A stretch of 64,000 nucleotides of DNA, taken from contig CAIKKJ010000054.1 in NCBI GenBank assembly GCA_903827955.1, forward strand, positions 2,298 through 66,297, written 5' to 3'. Position 1 is the first letter of the stretch; every line of letters begins with the position of its first letter. The stretch is from an uncultured Verrucomicrobia subdivision 3 bacterium. GTDB lineage: Bacteria > Verrucomicrobiota > Verrucomicrobiia > Limisphaerales > UBA11358. Below, one piece after another: positions 3,866 through 51,458 of the stretch. The notes below the pieces were generated by a model. It saw only the letters and a program-made list of their open reading frames with translations, made no database searches and had not been told where the DNA came from. The translations under genes and the position numbers were made by a program.

Positions 3866-5080
3866 ATGTCTACAATCAACGATACACTGCCAACTGTCCT
3901 CCTCAAACCGGGTGAAGCCGACCGCATTGTTGCCGGCCATCCATGGGTATATCAGAACGAAATCCTCCGCCTCACCCAAGAAACCGCTGACGGAGATTTG
4001 GTTCAGGTCAAAGACCACCGCCAGCGACTGCTCGGGGTGGGCTACTACAACTCCAAATCTAAAATCGGGATCCGCCTGCTCGCGCCGGATCGTATCCGGC
4101 CCAATGAGGAGTTTTTCGAGGAACGCATCCGCGCCGCACTCGCCGTGCGGAAAAAATTTATGCCGGATGCCACCTCATTCCGCGTGGTCAACGCCGAAAG
4201 CGATTTTTTGAGCGGCCTTATTGTGGACAAATACGAGGACGTCCTCGTCGTGCAAATTTCCGCACTGGGCATGGATCGGCGAAAACAGCATATCGTGGCC
4301 GCGCTGGAAAAAATATTTTCTCCGCGCGCCATCATGGAACGCAGCGATGTCGCCGCGCGCAAGTTTGAAGGATTGGAACCTGCCAATGGCATTCTCTCTG
4401 GTGAATCTGATGGAAAAATTTCCGTTAACCTGAACGGCCTGAAATTTGAAACCGACCTCATTGCCGGCCACAAAACCGGAATGTATCTCGACCAGCAGGC
4501 GAACTACCAAGCTGTCTCCCAATTTGCCAAAGGCGGAAACGTCCTCGACTGCTTTAGTTTTCTTGGCGGGTTTGGCTTGCACGCCGCCCGCGCCGGCGCA
4601 GCACAAGTCCGATTGCTCGACCAGAGCGCGGACGCCATCGCCGCCTCCGAACGGAACGCCAAGACGAACGGCCTTGAAAAAAACTGCGCATTTGAGACGG
4701 TTAATGTTTTTGACTGGCTCAAGTTGAATACTGCCGTGAAGCCACACGAACGCGTCATTCCACGCTTTGATCTCATCATCCTCGACCCGCCGTCTTTCAC
4801 CCGCAACCGCGCTTCGGTGCCTGACGCGCTTCGCGGCTACAAGGAAATTCATCTACGTGCGCTTAAACTTTTGAAGCCCGGCGGCACGCTGGCAACCTTC
4901 TGCTGCTCGCACCACGTCAACACGGAATTATTTCAGGACTCACTGCTCTCGGCAGCATTCGATACGCGCCACGTATTGCGCCGCGTAGCAACTTACGCAC
5001 AAAGTCCTGACCATCCAATCATACCCATGATTCCCGAAACAGAATACCTGAAGGGCTTCGCCTTTGAAAAAGTCCGGTGA
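3866..5080 (+). CDS. rlmI: class I SAM-dependent rRNA (cytosine-C5) methyltransferase, RlmI-like
   Basis: PUA-like N-terminus LLKPGEADRIVAGHPWVYQNEI, SAM-binding core VLDCFSFLGGFG and IILDPPSF. The ORF opens at 3821, but the internal Met at 3866 fits the family N-terminus better. Confidence 0.8.
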   Translation: MSTINDTLPTVLLKPGEADRIVAGHPWVYQNEILRLTQETADGDLVQVKDHRQRLLGVGYYNSKSKIGIRLLAPDRIRPNEEFFEERIRAALAVRKKFMPDATSFRVVNAESDFLSGLIVDKYEDVLVVQISALGMDRRKQHIVAALEKIFSPRAIMERSDVAARKFEGLEPANGILSGESDGKISVNLNGLKFETDLIAGHKTGMYLDQQANYQAVSQFAKGGNVLDCFSFLGGFGLHAARAGAAQVRLLDQSADAIAASERNAKTNGLEKNCAFETVNVFDWLKLNTAVKPHERVIPRFDLIILDPPSFTRNRASVPDALRGYKEIHLRALKLLKPGGTLATFCCSHHVNTELFQDSLLSAAFDTRHVLRRVATYAQSPDHPIIPMIPETEYLKGFAFEKVR

Positions 5081-5162
5081 GTAACCTTGCCTAAACAATC
5101 CGAGAACAACTCTGATTATGATTTCGTGGCTGGGGGCATGTGGGTAATGTGCTAGGGAAAGC

Positions 5163-5440
5163 CCACATGAAAACAGATTAAACCTCACCAAACACAACGT
5201 TACGCAGCCTTTAAGCATTCAGCCGTGGAAGAAGGAATGCTCCGTCTGGAGTATTGCTGCGGAATCGAGCATCAATGAGCAAAGCCTGCATAAATGGAGA
5301 CAACAGTTCAAGGTGTCGCCGCCAGTCAACCGGGTTGCCGGGACGTTGGATCAACTCAAGCGGAGAGCTGCCGATTGCCGCACCGGATGATGCAGCTGCG
5401 GGACATTCTAAAAAAGGTGCAGGTTCAGAACATGGGTGAC
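5163..5440 (+). pseudogene. IS3-family OrfA (HTH) remnant, frameshifted
   Basis: One frame reads ..ECSVWSIAAESSINEQSLHKWRQQFK..LDQLKRRAADCRTG*. A second frame continues MMQLRDILKKV, the pattern of IS3 OrfA (HTH, leucine zipper, ERDILKKA). No OrfB follows. Confidence 0.55.
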
Positions 5441-5535
5441 GGGGATGGTTCAGGATACAAAACACTTAAAGAAGGTAATCCCGAGCGATAGGCTTCGGAA
5501 TGTCTTGGAAAACGAGTGAACCTAATTGAGTTGCA

Positions 5536-5782
5536 ATGAAAGCGCTGCGGACGGAGAGCTTCCGTGCGTTGTGTGCCGAATACGGGCTACAAGTGGCTGG
5601 ATCGGTTGCTGCGCTGGGGCGTGCAAGGTCTGGCGGAGCAATCACGCTGGCCCCACAACCTTCCAGAGCAATTGAACTCGGAGGTGGTCTGCAAGATGGT
5701 GCGGCCAAACAGCTTCACCCGCATTGAGGACCGCGCAAGATTCGGGCATTATATCAGCGTATCCACGGACAGGCTACCTCGG
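5536..5782 (+). pseudogene. IS481-like transposase N-terminal remnant (frameshifts plus TGA in place of Trp)
   Basis: Pieces lie in two frames: SFRALCAEYG / TGYKWLDRLLRWGVQGLAEQSRWPHNLPEQLNSEVVCKMV / KQLHPH*GPRKIRAL. The catalytic core is absent, and the fragment abuts the IS4 fragment. Confidence 0.55.
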
Positions 5783-6570
5783 TTAGCCGATGCGGCGCAT
5801 GAGGACGGGATAATCGTGCTGGGCCTTCAAGCCGGTCATCACGACGGTCTGGTCGAAACGCAATCCGGTGGTTTTGTCAACAGGCCGGGAGTAACGGCGG
5901 GCGCACCGGAAGTTTTGTTTGGCCCGGGTGACGAAGAACGCGCCGCATTGATGCAGCCGATGCCAGCGGGCAAGTCGAGATAGTCGCGGTCCATGATGTA
6001 AAACGAACCGGCTTCCCAGACCAGTTGGTCGAGGATGTTTACGTCATGCACACTGCCGGTGGAGACAATGATGACGGTGGGAAAGTTGCCCTGGAGGGTC
6101 AGCAGGGTGTGGAGTTTTATAGCGGCCTTGTGCCGACGGAAGTTGGCCCACGGAAAGAGCGAGAGGCAGAGGTCTATGGCGGTGGAGTCCAGCGCGTAAG
6201 CCGCCGCTTGGAGTTCAAAGTGAAAGGGTTCATCGGCGTAGAGCGCGGTGGCTTGCCGGATGAGGACGTGGGCGAAATCGGCAAAGATACGCCAGTCCCG
6301 CTTTTCATTGGCCACCGCCAACGTGTTGCGCGCGGTGGGTTGCCGGATGCCGGCGTGATAGAGCTTCGGGCCGAAGGCCGCCAGACAGGTTTCGATGTCG
6401 CGCAAACTTTCGCGCCACGTCAGTTGAGCAAACGCCAGCACGAGGAACTGTTCGTAGGTGGGCAGCTTGCGGACGCGGAAGTTGCCGTGGTAGCGGGCGA
6501 CACACTTGTCGAACTCGTATTTGGGCAGGAAGCTGAGGAGTTGGGCTAAGACGGTGCGACCTTCGTTCAT
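5783..6570 (-). pseudogene. IS4-family DDE transposase, frameshifted near 5975 and 3'-truncated
   Basis: N-terminus MNEGRTVLAQLLSFLPKYEFDKCVARYHGNFRVRKL... After FYIMDRDYLD the homologous reading continues in another frame (LARWHRLHQCGAFFVTRAKQNFRCARRYSRPVDKTTGLRFDQTVVMTGLKAQHDYPVLMRRIG*) and ends well before the expected C-terminal part of the DDE domain. Confidence 0.7.
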
Positions 6571-45578: not shown

Positions 45579-47630
45579 TCAGCCGGCAGGCGCCGGTGCC
45601 GGTGTGCCGAGGCCACCGGGCAATTTCGGCGGTGCGGGCTTGGGCGGTGTTTCCGGCAACGGCGTGCCGGCGGGCGCGCCCATCATCGGCTTGAGATCCA
45701 CCGGCGGCTTGGGCGGCGGCGTAAATGTTCCGGTGCGCACGATGTCCGCCACCTGCGCGCCGTCGAGGGTTTCGTATTCCAGCAAACTATTGGCGATGAT
45801 TTCCAGCTTGTCGCGGTTCTCATCAATCAATTTTTTGGCGGTGTTGTAACCGTCGTCCACCAAGCGTTTCACTTCGGCGTCAATGGCCTTGGCGGTTTCT
45901 TCGCTGTATTCCTTGGAACGCTTCATGTCGCGTCCGAGAAAAACATATTCCTCGCTGTCGCCATAAAGCACGTTGCCCAATTTGTCGCTCATGCCCCAGT
46001 GCATGATCATGGCCTTGGCCATTTGCGTGGCCATCTGGATATCGCCAGACGCGCCGGAGGAGATGTCATCAGTGATGATCTCTTCGGCGATACGTCCGCC
46101 CATCGCCACCGCAAGATCATCCACCAACTGTTTCTTGCGCTGGCTCAAGATATCCTGCTTCGGCAGCATCATCGTCACACCCAGCGCGCGGCCGCGGGGA
46201 ATAATCGTGACCTTGTGCAGCGGATGCGTGTGCTTGAGCAGCACGTTGACGAGCGCGTGGCCGGCTTCGTGCCAGGCCGTGCCGCGTTTTTCCTCGTCGG
46301 ACATTGCCATACTGCGACGTTCGCGGCCCCAGCGGACTTTATCGCGCGCTTCTTCCAATTCCAATTGATCCACGGATTTCTTGTTCGTGCGCGCGGCGAG
46401 CAACGCAGCTTCGTTCAACAAATTGGCCAGCTCCGCGCCGGAGTAGCCGGGCGTGCCGCGCGCGATGATGGACAAATCCACATTCGGCGCGAGCTTCACA
46501 TTCTTGGCGTGAACCTTCAAAATCGCTTCGCGTCCGCGCACATCGGGCAGGTTCACCGTGACTTGACGGTCAAAGCGTCCGGGACGCAACAGCGCGGGAT
46601 CGAGCACATCGGGACGATTCGTTGCGGCGATGATGATGATGCCTTCCTGCGTGTCAAAGCCGTCCATCTCCACGAGCAACGCATTCAACGTCTGTTCGCG
46701 TTCGTCGTTGCCGCCGCCGAGGCCGTGGCCGCGGGAACGACCGACGGCGTCAATTTCATCAATGAAAATCAAGCACGGTGTGCTCTTGCGCGCCTGTTCA
46801 AACATGTCGCGCACGCGGCTGGCGCCCACGCCGACGAACATTTCCACAAAGTCCGAACCGCTGATGCTGAAGAACGCCGCGTCCGCCTCGCCCGCGATGG
46901 CTTTGGCCAAAAGCGTTTTGCCGGTTCCCGGCGGTCCGATCATCAAGACGCCTTTCGGAATGCGGCCACCGAGGCGCTGAAATTTTTTCGGATCTTTCAA
47001 GAAGTCCACGAGCTCGGAAACTTCCTCCATCGCTTCTTCCACGCCGGCGACGTCTTTGAACGTCGTCTTGTTGCGTTCCTTGGCGAGCATCTTCGCCTTG
47101 CTCTTGCCGAAGCTCAACGCGCCTTTGCCCGCCGCTTTGATCTGGCGGATGAAGAAAAACCAGAACAACACGCCGAGAATCAAAAATGGCGCGATACCCC
47201 AGATGACATTTTGCACCATGACGTTCGGCGACGTCGCTTCAATCCGGTCGGAAACGAGCAACTGATCGAGCATTTTTTGGGTGAGCAAAACATTCGGCGC
47301 GGAAAACCGAGTTTCTTCCTTGGTCGGCTTGCCGTCCTTGTCCGCCTTGAATAGCGTGCCGGTGATGGGCGTCAGTTGCGACGTCTGGTTGCCCAGATTA
47401 ATCTTGGCATGGGCGACGAAGTTCGACTGAAACAGCGCCAGAAATTCCGATTGCTGGATTTCTTTAGCCTCCGAAGTGGGCATCCGCCCCCGCATGGCCA
47501 CCAGCGCGACTGTGGCCGCGATGATGCCCGCCCACGCCAGCAGCGTGAACGTGGGAATTTTGAAACCACCGCCGTCGCCAGCCGATTTTTTATCAGCGGG
47601 CTTTTTGTTGGAAGAATCGTCGTCGAACAT
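45579..47630 (-). CDS. ftsH: ATP-dependent zinc metalloprotease FtsH
   Basis: [13 protein letters not shown], the SRH region, and HEAGHAL. Confidence 0.97.
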
Positions 47631-47690
47631 TTTGCCGCCAAAATATCACGCCATTCCCGCTTCTGCAATGCGTGAATTCAGCCGGTCATT

Positions 47691-47738
47691 TCCTAATCTT
47701 AAGCCGGCTCCTCCTCATCCTCGCCTAAGATTAGGCCT
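47691..47738. repeat. degenerate palindrome cctaatctta / taagattagg with internal GCCTAAGATTAGGC
   Basis: 10-bp arms with a 25-nt loop, resembling decayed core/inverse-core motifs. Confidence 0.6.
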
Positions 47739-47818
47739 CAAGACCCCCAACGAAGTCTACTACGAACAACCACCCTTTTGTCGCACTACAAATGTGAAAC
47801 TAAACGGCGTAAATAATC

Positions 47819-48001
47819 TCATGGCCTTTTTTCTAACTGCTCGATGCGACTTTCCAGGGAAGCAACTTTTGCTTCCAACTCTTTCTTGGAGTATTTGCTG
47901 CCGAATAGCTTGGCAATCCAATCCTGAATCCCCGTGATGCTGAGAATAATAAGGCAGATGGTAATCGAAATAGCCCAATCAACAAGTCTGTCTGGTGTCA
48001 T
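47819..48001 (-). CDS. cassette ORF: small single-TM protein with C-terminal coiled coil
   Basis: MTPDRLVDWAISITICLIILSITGIQDWIAKLFGSKYSKKELEAKVASLESRIEQLEKRP. An alternative GTG start lies at 48031. AT-rich codon usage. Confidence 0.5.
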   Translation of the reverse strand: MTPDRLVDWAISITICLIILSITGIQDWIAKLFGSKYSKKELEAKVASLESRIEQLEKRP

Positions 48002-48038
48002 AATGTTTGTGTGTTTTGTTTTTGTTGTCACGCGAGCC

Positions 48039-48182
48039 GCCTAACATCCAAACCTGAGCCACCGCCGAGTCTTAGCAGACTGCCACCCAGCGTGAACCGC
48101 GACAGCGGAACCCGTAGCACGGTGGCAGCCAGCGCCATCGGCTAGGTGGCCGTCCGCAAGGACCTCCAGCGAGTGGTTAGGC
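48039..48182 (-). repeat. attC-like structured repeat, copy A (144 bp)
   Basis: On the minus strand it reads GCCTAAC ... GTTAGGC. It shares a 90-bp core (1 mismatch) with copy B, and the TAA stop of the upstream ORF lies inside GCCTAAC. Confidence 0.55.
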
Positions 48183-48584
48183 CTCTTCGTCTGGGGGAGT
48201 CTTCTTGTTGAGTCGCCGCACTTTGGCGATGCCTTGAATGGCCATCCAGATGCCAATTATACCAACGATTTCTGGAATCGCCAAATAGCTGCCCCCCGCA
48301 CGGGTATAAAACCGAACTGCCCAACCGACAAGGAACAGACCGAGCAAGGCCACTGCAATCCAGGCAATTAACATGCCTCGCTTTATAGAGTCCGGGCGCA
48401 TTTTCGATAGAAAGTGCCAGGGCTGCTTTCGGGTCACATAAACACCTGCCATAACTGAAACTCCAACTACCAAGATCCACCAAGTTTCAAGGACCAATCC
48501 GAAAAAGCACCCAACGACGGCGACAGCAACTACGAACATCCCGTCGAGCGTCATCTTTTTCTCCGGCTGTTTGTTGCCGCGCAT
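48177..48584 (-). CDS. cassette ORF: four-TM membrane protein
   Basis: MRGNKQPEKKMTLDGMFVVAVAVVGCFFGLVLETWWILVVGVSVMAGVYV... The longer track ORF (to 48704) would read through the repeat and was rejected. Confidence 0.6.
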   Translation of the reverse strand: MRGNKQPEKKMTLDGMFVVAVAVVGCFFGLVLETWWILVVGVSVMAGVYVTRKQPWHFLSKMRPDSIKRGMLIAWIAVALLGLFLVGWAVRFYTRAGGSYLAIPEIVGIIGIWMAIQGIAKVRRLNKKTPPDEEA

Positions 48585-48604
48585 TTGGTTTGGTGTGCGA
48601 TGAA

Positions 48605-48733
48605 GCCTAACGACCAAACCTGAGCCACCGCCGAGTCTTAGCAGACTGCCACCCGGCGTGAACCGCGACAGCGGAACCCGTAGCACGGTGGCAGCCAGCG
48701 CCAACGGCGGTTGGCTCCGGCGAATGGTTAGGT
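48605..48733 (-). repeat. attC-like structured repeat, copy B (129 bp)
   Basis: On the minus strand it reads ACCTAAC ... GTTAGGC and starts 4 nt after the stop of the S26-like ORF. Confidence 0.55.
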
Positions 48734-48737
48734 GGCG

Positions 48738-49238
48738 TCATTTGTCTCTCACTCTACCTAAAATGCTCTGCTTCGGCAACGCACCCCAAAAGCGGCTGTC
48801 GAATGAATTCGTGGTATTGTCACCGACTAGGAAATACGTGTCGGCTGCAATTTTATATGGATAAGAAACAACTGGGAAGGGTGAGTGGGGAATACTAGCA
48901 TCGTAGTGAATACCTGCCAACCTGTCGGGCTGTGCTTCGCGTTTTCCATCAATGTAAATACCATCGGCTCGAATCTCCAAACTCTCTCCTGGAAGGCCGA
49001 TAACTCGCATGACCCAAATCTCCTGCGGCTGCGTCAATGTCTCTTTCGGTGGAGGGTGGAACACGACAACATCCCATCGCTGCGGCTCACTCTTACGAAA
49101 CGCAGACATATCGGCGACGACGCTCTCATTCGGCTGGATGGTCGGTGACATGGCTGACGACCCGCTTTGGCGGAAACATCGCTCGGAACATCCGCTGATT
49201 AAAACCAGAAGCGTGAGAATGATGATGGATGTGCGCAT
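48738..49238 (-). CDS. cassette ORF: S26 signal-peptidase-I-like lipoprotein
   Basis: Lipobox LISGC, Ser box GSSAMSPTI, VMRVIGLPGE, and GDNTTNSFDSRFWG. Confidence 0.7.
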   Translation of the reverse strand: MRTSIIILTLLVLISGCSERCFRQSGSSAMSPTIQPNESVVADMSAFRKSEPQRWDVVVFHPPPKETLTQPQEIWVMRVIGLPGESLEIRADGIYIDGKREAQPDRLAGIHYDASIPHSPFPVVSYPYKIAADTYFLVGDNTTNSFDSRFWGALPKQSILGRVRDK

Positions 49239-49242
49239 AGCC

Positions 49243-49357
49243 GCCTAACAGTAATATTAACCCTTAAAAGTGTGGTTTATCACTTTCATTGATTTTGACC
49301 TTAGTTGAGGGTTTTTTCCCTGTCAAGCAAGGGGGTTTGGAAAATCTTCGGGGTGAA
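49243..49357 (-). other. possible attI-like junction (GTTAGGC core 4 nt upstream of the first cassette ATG, plus AT-rich spacer)
   Basis: On the minus strand ...ttaatattactGTTAGGCggctATG. It lacks the 90-bp attC-like core found at the other two junctions. Confidence 0.3.
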
Positions 49358-49514
49358 ATGTCACTGCAGAAAACCGCAGTTGAGGGCTTGGTGCCCAATC
49401 CCAAGTTGCGCTTGCGGGAGCAGGTCAGGAGGTGCGGCGCCGCCGGTTCTTGGGGGCGTGGGCGAACCACCGCCAGCGTGTATCCGTCACGACCAGCGGG
49501 CAGTCATTTAACCC

Positions 49515-49750
49515 TCCCAACCGGCCAAAACAGTCACCGGTAGGGACGCTGCGCGGCGGCGTCCTTCCGCTGGCGCTTCCCTGTTTTAAGCCAGCGGAAT
49601 CCCAAAAACCGCCCGCCAAGAAAAGGAAAGCGCGGGCGGGGACGGCCCAGCGGTCCGTCCCTACCTGCGGCAGGGCGTAAGGTGGATTGGGGCAAACACC
49701 GCAGGTCATTGCCAGCGGGTGGCCTTTTCGCCTTCCCAACCGGCCAAAAC
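49515..49750. repeat. multi-hairpin GC-rich element flanked by 17-bp perfect direct repeats (tcccaaccggccaaaac)
   Basis: The direct repeats lie at 49515-49531 and 49734-49750. The interior holds at least five stems of 6-9 bp, including gtagggacg/cgtccctac. Confidence 0.8.
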
Positions 49751-49766
49751 GGTCAAAACGGGGTTT

Positions 49767-50081
49767 TTTAATCAAAATCGCCGGTTTTAGACTTAAAATC
49801 GTCAAAACATAGTCATGATTGATTAAAACATAGTTATGTTTCGCGGATTTATAGTCTGGAATCGGCGGGGAATAGTCATGTTTTGAGCAAACATAGTGAT
49901 GTTTCGGCCAGCCATAATCATGTTTTGCCGGAACATAATCTGGAATCGGCAAATCCAAGTCATGGATCGGCCGGGGATGACTTGGAATCGTGGCGGGATG
50001 ATTTGGTTTTGGTGAATCATAATCTGGATTTATCGCGGAATAATCTGGTTTGGGAAAAAGAAGATTTTCCGACGACGGGGA
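49767..50081. repeat. degenerate tandem array with strict 21-bp period (12 clear units at 49809-50060, weaker units on both sides)
   Basis: Units start atagtcatg / atagtctggaatcggc / ataatcatgttttgccgg, and so on. The consensus is roughly ATARTCWKGDWTYGGC plus 5 nt. Confidence 0.85.
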
Positions 50082-50237
50082 GGGAAATCTTTTAGACAGA
50101 ATTAACCGGATTCACAGAATTTTAAGGCAGAAAGGCCGGCAGCTTTGGCTGACTACAAGTTATTTTGGGAATGCTTAGCGTGCCGTCACAAGGTTGCGCG
50201 CTTTTATTTTTTTCACGTTTGTTTATCATCCGCGCCG

Positions 50238-51458
50238 ATGTTGGGAACGCTGCGCAAAGCCGAATACGCCGAGCTGATGATTTTATTTTTCATCCAGGCG
50301 GCCGGCATGGCCATCTGGTTCGTGCCGCTCGGCCCGATTCTGGACGCGCACGGGCTGCATGAGATCAAGCCCTACGCCTTTGCCTCGCTGGCGGTGGCGG
50401 CGTTCATTTCCCCGTTGATTTTTGGCGCGATGGCCGACCGGCATGTGCCGCCGGCCAAAGTCTTGCGCTGGCTGGCCGTCGCCTCGGCGGTGCTGATGGC
50501 GGGCATCAGCACGGCGCTGAAATTTGAATTGAACCGCTGGCTGGTGCTAGGCCTCATCCAAATTTTTTATCTCTTTTACTCGCCGATGTTCAGCATCTCC
50601 ACGGCCATCGTGCTGGCGCGGCTGGCGGATGCCAAAAAAGAATACGGCCCCATCCGGTCGCTGGCGACGTTCGGCTGGATGGGCGGCGCGCTGCTGGTCA
50701 GCGCGCTGGCGCTGGATCATTCGGCCTATGCCGGATACCTCGGCGCTGTAGTCTGGCTGTTGGTGGCGGCGTTTACTTATTTTCTGCCCACGCTGGAAAT
50801 GCCGGCGGCGGCGGAAAATCTTTCGTGGCGCGAACGGCTGGGCCTCGATGCGCTCACGCTGTTGAAGAACCGCGAGACGCGCGTGGTGTTTCTGATGACC
50901 ACGCTGTTCAACATCCCGCTCTGCGCCTTTTATCCCTACGCGCCGACGCAGTTGCATGAACTCGGTTACGAGCGCACGAGCGCGTGGATGAGTTTGGCGC
51001 AGACGACGGAGATCATTGCGATGTTCAGCCTGGCGTGGATGCTGCATCACTGGCGATTGAAATGGGTCTTCGCCTGCGGCCTGGGCATCGGCGTGGCGCG
51101 GTTCGCTTTAAGCGCGATGAATGATGAAAGATTTCTGCTGCTGGGCATCGCGCTGCACGGCGCGTCGTTCGTGCTGGTGTTCATCACGGCGCAGATTTAC
51201 CTCGACCAGCAGATTGACCCGGCGTGGCGGGCGCGGGCGCAGGCGCTGCTGACGCTGATGAACGGCGGCTTCGGCAACCTCATCGGCTATCTCGGCACGG
51301 GCTGGTGGTTCGCGGCCTGCACTAAAAGCACCGGCACGCATTGGCCGTGGTTCTGGGGCAGGTTGACGCTGGTGATCATCGGCGTGCTGTTTTATTTTCT
51401 CGCAACGTTCCGCGACCAGAAAATCCAGATGAACAGAAATGGAGTTGCCACCAAATGA
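50238..51458 (+). CDS. MFS transporter (12 TM)
   Basis: Polytopic protein of 406 aa from the internal Met, with an MFS-like duplicated 6-TM organisation. Substrate unknown. Confidence 0.75.
   Translation: MLGTLRKAEYAELMILFFIQAAGMAIWFVPLGPILDAHGLHEIKPYAFASLAVAAFISPLIFGAMADRHVPPAKVLRWLAVASAVLMAGISTALKFELNRWLVLGLIQIFYLFYSPMFSISTAIVLARLADAKKEYGPIRSLATFGWMGGALLVSALALDHSAYAGYLGAVVWLLVAAFTYFLPTLEMPAAAENLSWRERLGLDALTLLKNRETRVVFLMTTLFNIPLCAFYPYAPTQLHELGYERTSAWMSLAQTTEIIAMFSLAWMLHHWRLKWVFACGLGIGVARFALSAMNDERFLLLGIALHGASFVLVFITAQIYLDQQIDPAWRARAQALLTLMNGGFGNLIGYLGTGWWFAACTKSTGTHWPWFWGRLTLVIIGVLFYFLATFRDQKIQMNRNGVATK

Follow-up and report, generated by a model that had tools for sequence, protein, structure and literature searches.

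The 64-kb window analyzed here (64,000 nucleotides of contig CAIKKJ010000054.1, assembly GCA_903827955.1, from an uncultured Verrucomicrobia subdivision 3 bacterium) carries, between ftsH and a gene of the major facilitator superfamily (MFS), three short open reading frames (ORFs) in series with two long palindromic repeats between them, and the question raised by this locus is whether the repeats are integron recombination sites in a place where no integrase gene adjoins them. We consider it very likely that the island is a gene-cassette array of the integron type that has no integrase, that is, an attC-site cluster with no integron integrase (CALIN), in the chromosome of an uncultured member of the Verrucomicrobiota. 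An earlier sequence-only reading of this DNA had proposed a cassette array, either an integrase-less attC cluster or a decayed integron, and this is supported by the attC features of the repeats together with the lack of an intI gene in the window. By definition, a CALIN has two or more attC sites clustered within 4 kb and lacks an intI nearby (Cury et al. 2016, PMC4889954); the island has two attC sites spaced 566 bp apart and no intI nearby. It lacks the adjacent intI of a complete integron, and it falls outside the definition of a sedentary chromosomal integron, which is integrase-bearing in all genomes of the species or has more than 19 attC sites. CALINs have already been described and are common, with thousands in RefSeq, nearly half of which have just two attC sites, the commonest size class (10.1101/2022.09.11.507474); what is new here is a member in an uncultured Verrucomicrobiota genome.

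All coordinates refer to the window, and the island features lie on its minus strand. Each of the three ORFs is preceded by the heptamer GTTAGGC (the second and third copies at 48605-48611 and 48039-48045), which ends 4, 20, and 37 nt 5′ of the respective ATG codons. The stop codon of the first ORF lies 4 nt ahead of ACCTAAC, while the TAA of the second falls within GCCTAAC; these positions, like those of the ORFs and repeats themselves, agree to the base with the sequence-only reading. GTTAGGC occurs four times on the two strands of the window, every copy at the boundaries of the island. According to a repeat finder the two repeats are 96% identical across 104 nt, and a 47-nt repeat core has two matches in the window against none expected from 100 shuffles. 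Folding as single-stranded DNA, a check that had been suggested earlier, places both repeats below their shuffles (z −2.2 to −3.2). The island had also been described as clearly AT-richer than its flanks. This is so at third codon positions, where the GC content of the three ORFs is 0.51-0.59 vs 0.70-0.81 for ftsH, the MFS gene, and holA, and the cassette ORFs look foreign in this respect; the overall difference is modest (0.52 for the island vs 0.56 for the window).

Judged by their sequence, these repeats, which lie upstream of ftsH, are true attC sites of the integron kind. Both have the expected RYYYAAC and GTTRRRY ends (ACCTAAC/GTTAGGC in attC1, GCCTAAC/GTTAGGC in attC2), and in the RNAalifold consensus of the metagenomic repeat family to which they belong, an R box of 5-7 bp is separated by a 5/7-nt spacer from an L box whose 5′ arm has two asymmetric bulges. 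A caveat raised previously, that the spacer of the window repeats is about 10 nt long, falls away, as two more pairs extend the L box and leave a spacer of 5 nt/7 nt, as in the family consensus and in the aadA1 attC. For a reverse test, a covariance model built from the metagenomic family only (R1) was searched against a 5-kb class 1 integron locus of plasmid R100, in which the 60-nt aadA1 attC was confirmed directly 3′ of aadA1. The single significant match was this site, hit at positions 2501-2560 of the correct strand and aligned with model positions 1-99 (30.8 bits, E = 4e-7), and the next best match in the locus had an E-value of 0.37. Under the model, 18 of 18 pairs of the aadA1 attC are standard and its bulges occupy the same positions as in the family; its reverse strand scored 7.6 bits. 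The aadA1 attC (the 59-base element of class 1 integron In2 on R100) is like the window sites in its RYYYAAC/GTTRRRY ends, its 5-nt 5′ spacer, and its two L-box bulge positions. It differs in having almost no centre, whereas the window sites, at 129 and 144 nt, have long variable ones, and sequence identity between them is confined to the boxes. Searched against the window, R1 returned attC1 and attC2 only. The former is matched end to end with 87.9 bits (E = 1e-21), compared with 14 bits on the opposite strand, and the latter with 47.9 bits (E = 1e-10) and non-standard pairs in the L box. The 5′ arm of attC2 contains an insertion of ~17 nt and substitutions in the L″ region, and this site may be the poorer substrate of the two.

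The repeats of the window are members of a large family. An Rfam scan of positions 47000-50500 with E-values up to 10 gave noise only, and no attC family surfaced in the Rfam search. The family was found instead by a protein search with the joined open stretches of the translated repeat, which recovered spurious read-through ORFs in other contigs, and these contigs turned out to carry series of related repeats between short ORFs. A 20-nt pattern common to them and attC1 is present in at least 120 JGI metagenome contigs, a single one of which may contain as many as 11 exact matches, always on the same strand, and in 13 further stretches of IMG/VR. A contig scan with the window-specific 3′ end GGCTCAGGTTTGGNNGTTAGG was discarded; its three isolated matches have no repeat structure and are probably due to chance, and the pattern was too specific, most members reading GGCTCAGCTTTTTTCGTTAGG. 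With a profile built from 45 diverse copies, at least 448 copies were collected from 132 loci (designated below by L numbers, as are related contigs), and no locus has copies on mixed strands. The copies are spaced by a median of 373 bp (5-95% range 194-822 bp). The longest ORF is co-oriented with the repeats in 269 of 292 inter-repeat intervals (92%), has a median length of 117 aa, starts a median of 14 nt past one repeat, and stops a median of 7 nt ahead of the next. The dominant form is 99 nt long and reads GCCTAAC AAGTC GCCGGAGCCAACCGCCG ... CGGCGGTGGCTCAGC TTTTTTC GTTAGGC; its arms are conserved and its centre is variable, and the length range of the family (90-162 nt) comes from the centre alone. 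Among 240 extracted copies, 209 end in GTTAGGC and 204 start with GCCTAAC. One attC of the L016 array is 92% identical to attC1, and the long array L108 has at least 20 attC sites in 9.3 kb. In the homogeneity of the attC family, in the small cassettes of mostly unknown function, and in the fixation of the window array within its species, there is a resemblance to sedentary chromosomal integron arrays such as the Vibrio cholerae superintegron with its VCR repeats, from which the window differs in having two attC sites, no adjacent integrase, and a host in the Verrucomicrobiota rather than the Gammaproteobacteria.

The earlier statement that no tyrosine recombinase is encoded in the window also holds. 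Searches by tblastn with IntI1 of R100, the IntI of L149, an IS91-linked recombinase of L089, and a phage integrase found no credible tyrosine recombinase in the 64 kb, so that neither intI nor a remnant of it was detected within 15 kb on one side of the array and 48 kb on the other, and in the 950-bp spacer at 49250-50200 no intI pseudogene rose above noise. No intI was present among the first 139 family loci either. The only tyrosine recombinase adjoining an array in these loci, beside the first attC of L089, was rejected as an intI, as its TIGR02249 score of 138 bits is far under the cut-off of 265, it is devoid of the IntI-specific segment, and it adjoins an IS91 transposase; the ORFs in the position of intI at L070, L069, L111, and L019 are IS110-family transposases instead. 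The link to an integrase comes from L149 (IMGVR_UViG_3300025162_000136), where positions 4606-5983 hold a complete one-cassette integron composed of intI, attI, a cassette, and a family attC. Its integrase has 325 aa, is divergently oriented, lies one cassette away from the family attC, and shares 38% identity with IntI1. Its best-matching family is TIGR02249 (263.8 bits), and it has the IntI-specific KYPxA...WxFLFP segment (...LPGQLAKKYPNAKRELRWQFLFP...). The sequence AGCGATATGCG...ctatattttactGTTAGGC starts 22 nt from the intI ATG and is followed by a 274-bp cassette and a canonical 99-nt family attC. A fragment of a related IntI is found at L147. With a family attC beside an integron integrase at L149 and a fragment of an IntI at L147, the repeat family can be identified as an integron attC family, whose members, by this association, would be substrates of an integron integrase. 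As a separate observation, the L149 integron sits on a 30.7-kb contig classed as viral by IMG/VR, and family attC sites are carried by twelve other stretches of the viral collection.

A conserved leader precedes the first cassette of the window. It comprises a −35 element TTGACA (49321-49326), a 17-nt spacer, a −10-like TAAGGT (49298-49303), the motif AGTGATAAACCACA (49271-49284) and, ~21 nt past it, ttaatattactGTTAGGC, with ttaatattact abutting the first GTTAGGC. The same layout is found 5′ of the first cassette at L021, L025, L093, L098, and L121 (nhmmer, E = 1e-14 to 1e-22), and there are weaker matches at L062, L052, and L091. The attI end of L149 (AGCGATAT...ctatattttactGTTAGGC) resembles the leader of the window (AGTGATAA...ttaatattactGTTAGGC) in its 3′ end and GATA motif; this attI end is all that the two share, the promoter part of the leader not being found at L149. 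Where DNA upstream of a leader is visible, it contains no integrase, and the neighbours differ between loci: the MFS gene in the window, a tRNA at L025, a TPR gene ending ~50 bp before the −35 element at L098, and MacB/ABC transporter genes at L052. We regard the leader as a candidate Pc (cassette) promoter plus attI site of a non-proteobacterial integron lineage. The features of the island are listed in Table 1.

Table 1. Features of the cassette island, in window coordinates and in the order in which they are read
Feature	Position	Strand	Description
Array leader	49250-49344	−	Conserved; candidate Pc promoter and attI
First GTTAGGC core site	49243-49249	−	Presumed attI crossover point, G/TT; same heptamer behind the leader at all leader-bearing loci and at L149
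Cassette 1 ORF	48738-49238	−	166-aa S26 signal-peptidase-like lipoprotein
attC1	48605-48733	−	129 nt, ACCTAAC...GTTAGGC
Cassette 2 ORF	48177-48584	−	135-aa protein with four predicted transmembrane helices
attC2	48039-48182	−	144 nt, GCCTAAC...GTTAGGC
Terminal ORF	47819-48001	−	60 aa, one transmembrane helix and a coiled coil; starts 37 nt past attC2
Distal island boundary	47780-47805	−	GTTTAGTTTCACATTTGTAGTGCGAC; opens with core-like GTTTAGT

Two other leader regions deserve mention as observations of their own. At L141 (7800-9150) there are two tandem modules of leader plus ORF, the first with a homologue of the S26-like protein and the second with a 117-aa ORF, each behind the same upstream block of ~100 nt and each ending, where a full attC would be expected, in a collapsed palindrome (TGAACGTTCA and GCCTAACAAAGCATTGTTAGAGCC); these palindromes may be attC sites with their interior deleted. 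At L142 (7900-8000) a different leader has two direct repeats (AGGAATTCTTTCC) ahead of GTTCGGC, a layout that resembles the integrase-binding repeats of attI sites, and the attC subfamily of this locus has GGCGAAC/GTTCGGC as its cores.

The layout thus runs from a leader whose promoter is sigma-70-like and whose end resembles attI, through GTTAGGC, the S26-like cassette with attC1, the four-helix cassette with attC2, and the 60-aa ORF, to the native DNA upstream of ftsH. From established integron biology we infer how it may have arisen, including the order of insertion, the use of the leader promoter, and an integrase that acts in trans or has been lost. An integron integrase would insert circular cassettes, each an ORF plus its attC, successively at the G/TT of the leader GTTAGGC, with the folded bottom strand of attC as its substrate. 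Successive insertion would leave a GTTAGGC before every ORF and would push the DNA once downstream of the site, here the 60-aa ORF, to the far end, and the tightly packed, co-oriented ORFs would be read from the leader promoter. The integrase would either be encoded elsewhere in the genome and act in trans or have been lost, in which case the array would be frozen. A frozen array would fit the complete invariance of the island in all sampled contigs of the species as well as the altered 5′ arm of attC2.

Several observations weigh against the interpretation of the island as an integron-type array. No integrase is linked to it within the window. Compensatory changes are seen in none of 18 pairs, which leaves the fold without support from covariation; because the paired arms are almost invariant, covariation is uninformative here and the fold is carried by sequence complementarity alone. 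The 5′ spacer of attC2 is atypically long. The −10 element TAAGGT matches the consensus at three of six positions and is unlisted in a strict promoter scan. The R1 search of the window found no attC behind the third, 60-aa ORF. Finally, the L149 integrase scores 1.2 bits under the curated TIGR02249 cut-off of 265.

Among the other explanations, the one that fares best is a refinement of the CALIN reading rather than a substitute for it. It holds that the array sits on a platform complete in itself, with no integrase beside it at any time, its promoter-bearing, attI-like leader being served in trans, and we consider this a tentative possibility. The same arrangement (−35/−10, GATA motif, ~22 nt, GTTAGGC) precedes the first cassettes in at least 6-9 independent contigs, and it would be unexpected for independent losses of integrases to end with one and the same promoter in the place of intI; the leaders with enough flank to judge, however, amount to a handful, and the uniform lack of intI among varied neighbours described above, which speaks for this explanation, is seen in these. 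A different ORF occupies this distal junction in the closest relative and suggests turnover, whereas the island is 100% identical in same-species contigs, with no activity visible, and the sole integrase-linked example, L149, shares the attI end of the leader and not its promoter part. CALINs as generally described (PMC4889954; IntegronFinder 2.0, PMC9024848) are like the island in their co-oriented short ORFs, mostly of unknown function, and in having no intI or intI pseudogene within 10 kb. The island differs in keeping a promoter and an attI-like leader that recur before other integrase-less arrays; attI is usually not assessed for CALINs.

It seems to us improbable that no platform ever existed and that an integrase acting in trans placed cassettes into a secondary genomic site (attC x attG), which would have produced a small CALIN upstream of ftsH. 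Most CALINs have no intI pseudogenes nearby and nearly half have two attC sites, insertion of cassettes into genomic sites has been shown experimentally, and with single attC sites lacking integron integrases (SALINs) and the attG insertion route, cassettes are, as in the window, found in a chromosome away from any integrase (10.1101/2022.09.11.507474). The 950-bp spacer without a trace of intI and the core-like GTTTAGT that opens the distal boundary are also consistent with such an origin. The window, however, has more than one attC, the DNA upstream of its first GTTAGGC is the conserved leader of other arrays and similar to a real attI rather than arbitrary chromosome, and its last ORF is not followed by the attC that insertion by attC x attG would leave at the right-hand junction.

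The least probable explanation, that the repeats are generic intergenic palindromes (repetitive extragenic palindromic (REP) sequences and their bacterial interspersed mosaic elements (BIMEs), or elements like miniature inverted-repeat transposable elements (MITEs)) or duplicated terminators with coincidental core-site-like ends, is largely refuted. The repeats share with REP/BIME palindromes their GC-rich, imperfect symmetry and their place behind or between genes, and neither the lack of an integrase in the window nor that of an Rfam match (a weak point, attC sites being DNA recombination sites) outweighs that all 448 copies stand in same-strand arrays with cassette-sized spacing and tightly packed ORFs rather than as dispersed REPs, that the window has two copies in 64 kb, both in the island and in a single orientation with integron core sites at both ends, that the two strands score so differently (87.9 vs 14 bits), that the family model recovers the aadA1 attC exactly, and that a family member adjoins an integron integrase elsewhere (L149).

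Of the cassette proteins, the first matches Pfam PF10502 (3.6e-31) and NCBIfam TIGR02227 (92 bits), with thresholds passed. Aligned to solved signal peptidases, it has Ala29 at the position of the catalytic serine and Met77 where the catalytic lysine would stand (SSAMSPT against SMxPT, VMRVIGLPGE against KRxIGxPGD), together with a lipoprotein-type signal LISGC, and by these substitutions it is probably an inactive pseudo-peptidase. The homologue at L141, which is 87% identical and sits behind the leader variant described above, has the same two substitutions, and the seven-attC array of the diverged subfamily at L142 has an 81% identical homologue as its first cassette. An S26 homologue thus stands first behind the leader in three arrays (window, L141, and L142), and the recurrence of a probably inactive homologue as promoter-proximal cassette hints at a selected function. 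Homologues of 60-87% identity are common in Verrucomicrobiota in unrelated contexts. The four-helix protein is a near-orphan with 10 relatives among 1.84 billion representative proteins and no Pfam or NCBIfam family above threshold. The 60-aa ORF has no homologue in other arrays and is absent from the same junction of the closest relative; nor were homologues of any of the three proteins found in the other 130 arrays.

Comparison between ftsH and the MFS gene, which the sequence-only reading had recommended, shows where the island ends and how the locus varies. Exact-protein look-ups found the same gene order in every contig of the same species, from several ENA metagenomes, and the 1539-bp island is 100% identical in L001-L003; an apparent 12-bp polymorphism in L004 was dismissed as a run of N at a scaffold gap. 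FtsH and S26 homologues with source names point to Verrucomicrobiota/Limisphaerales. Relatives with FtsH identities of 83-87% keep the order ftsH-STAS-holA-BFN, have other genes upstream of ftsH, and contain no family attC there; the island is absent from them, and conserved synteny of the three ORFs, which would have spoken against cassettes, is not seen. In the closest relative, L157 (FtsH 89% identical), the region upstream of ftsH is common up to GTTTAGTTTCACATTTGTAGTGCGAC and a different ORF lies beyond, and the end of the island is placed at this sequence because the DNA up to there is common with L157. The island extends over ~47806-49344 on the minus strand, its distal end lying ~10 nt past the stop codon of the 60-aa ORF. 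It does not reach to 47691, the start proposed earlier, as the 47692-47735 palindrome belongs to the native DNA upstream of ftsH, which L157 shares; this palindrome was also rejected as a decayed third attC, having no match to the family model. Among close relatives, the locus upstream of ftsH seems to vary. For the L157 species, two independent assemblies both break 234 bp upstream of ftsH, just past the distal 26-mer, as would be expected with a cassette array, repeat-rich or variable, in that position as well.

Other observations concern the ends of arrays and the DNA around the island. A distal sequence of 26-29 nt, GTTTAGTTTCA(C/T)ATTTGTAGTGCGACAA, recurs at L066 (177-202) in an unrelated array, in both cases directly 3′ of the last, attC-less ORF; with two contexts only, it may represent the insertion site's original right half. 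Other arrays (L016 at 2584-2650, L051, L106, L059, and L065) end in a shortened attC, in which the inverse core and the conserved non-attC sequence behind it (GCCTAAC(A/C)AGATTAGATGAGAAGG...) are followed by a hairpin, which points to a distal terminus shared by another set of arrays. IS110-family transposase genes are found at or inside arrays at L019, L069, L070, L074, and L111, a placement reminiscent of IS1111-type elements, which target attC sites, and IS91 (L089) and DDE-type insertion sequences (L015) adjoin arrays as well. Between the leader and the MFS gene, a nucleoside symporter gene, positions 49851-50006 (plus strand) hold imperfect tandem repeats with a period of 21/42 bp (units such as ATAGTCATGTTTTGACCAAAC), which may be operator or iteron-like sites for the MFS gene; read on the minus strand, they give a spurious ORF with a 7-aa period (49425-49958). 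Direct repeats of 51 nt at 49486-49536 and 49705-49755 (78% identical) enclose a 26-nt inverted pair (49539-49564 and 49640-49665); this arrangement has no other occurrence in the window and resembles either a small structured element or a regulatory module in duplicate.

The attC family described here is very abundant and homogeneous in peat, soil, and freshwater metagenomes, where it can be used for the recovery of cassettes and explains assembly breaks. For the lineage itself, the recurring integrase-less leader makes the alternative between activity of CALINs in trans and dead relics testable. A bolder proposal, which we put forward as the less probable extension of the platform explanation above, is that the leader characterizes a family of satellite integron platforms that have no integrase but their own promoter and attI-like site, present at several unrelated chromosomal loci in Verrucomicrobiota-like genomes and both loaded and shuffled in trans by an integrase encoded elsewhere. 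If this were true, the different ORF at the ftsH junction of L157 would be a trace of turnover, and such CALINs would be working parts of a distributed integron system rather than debris.

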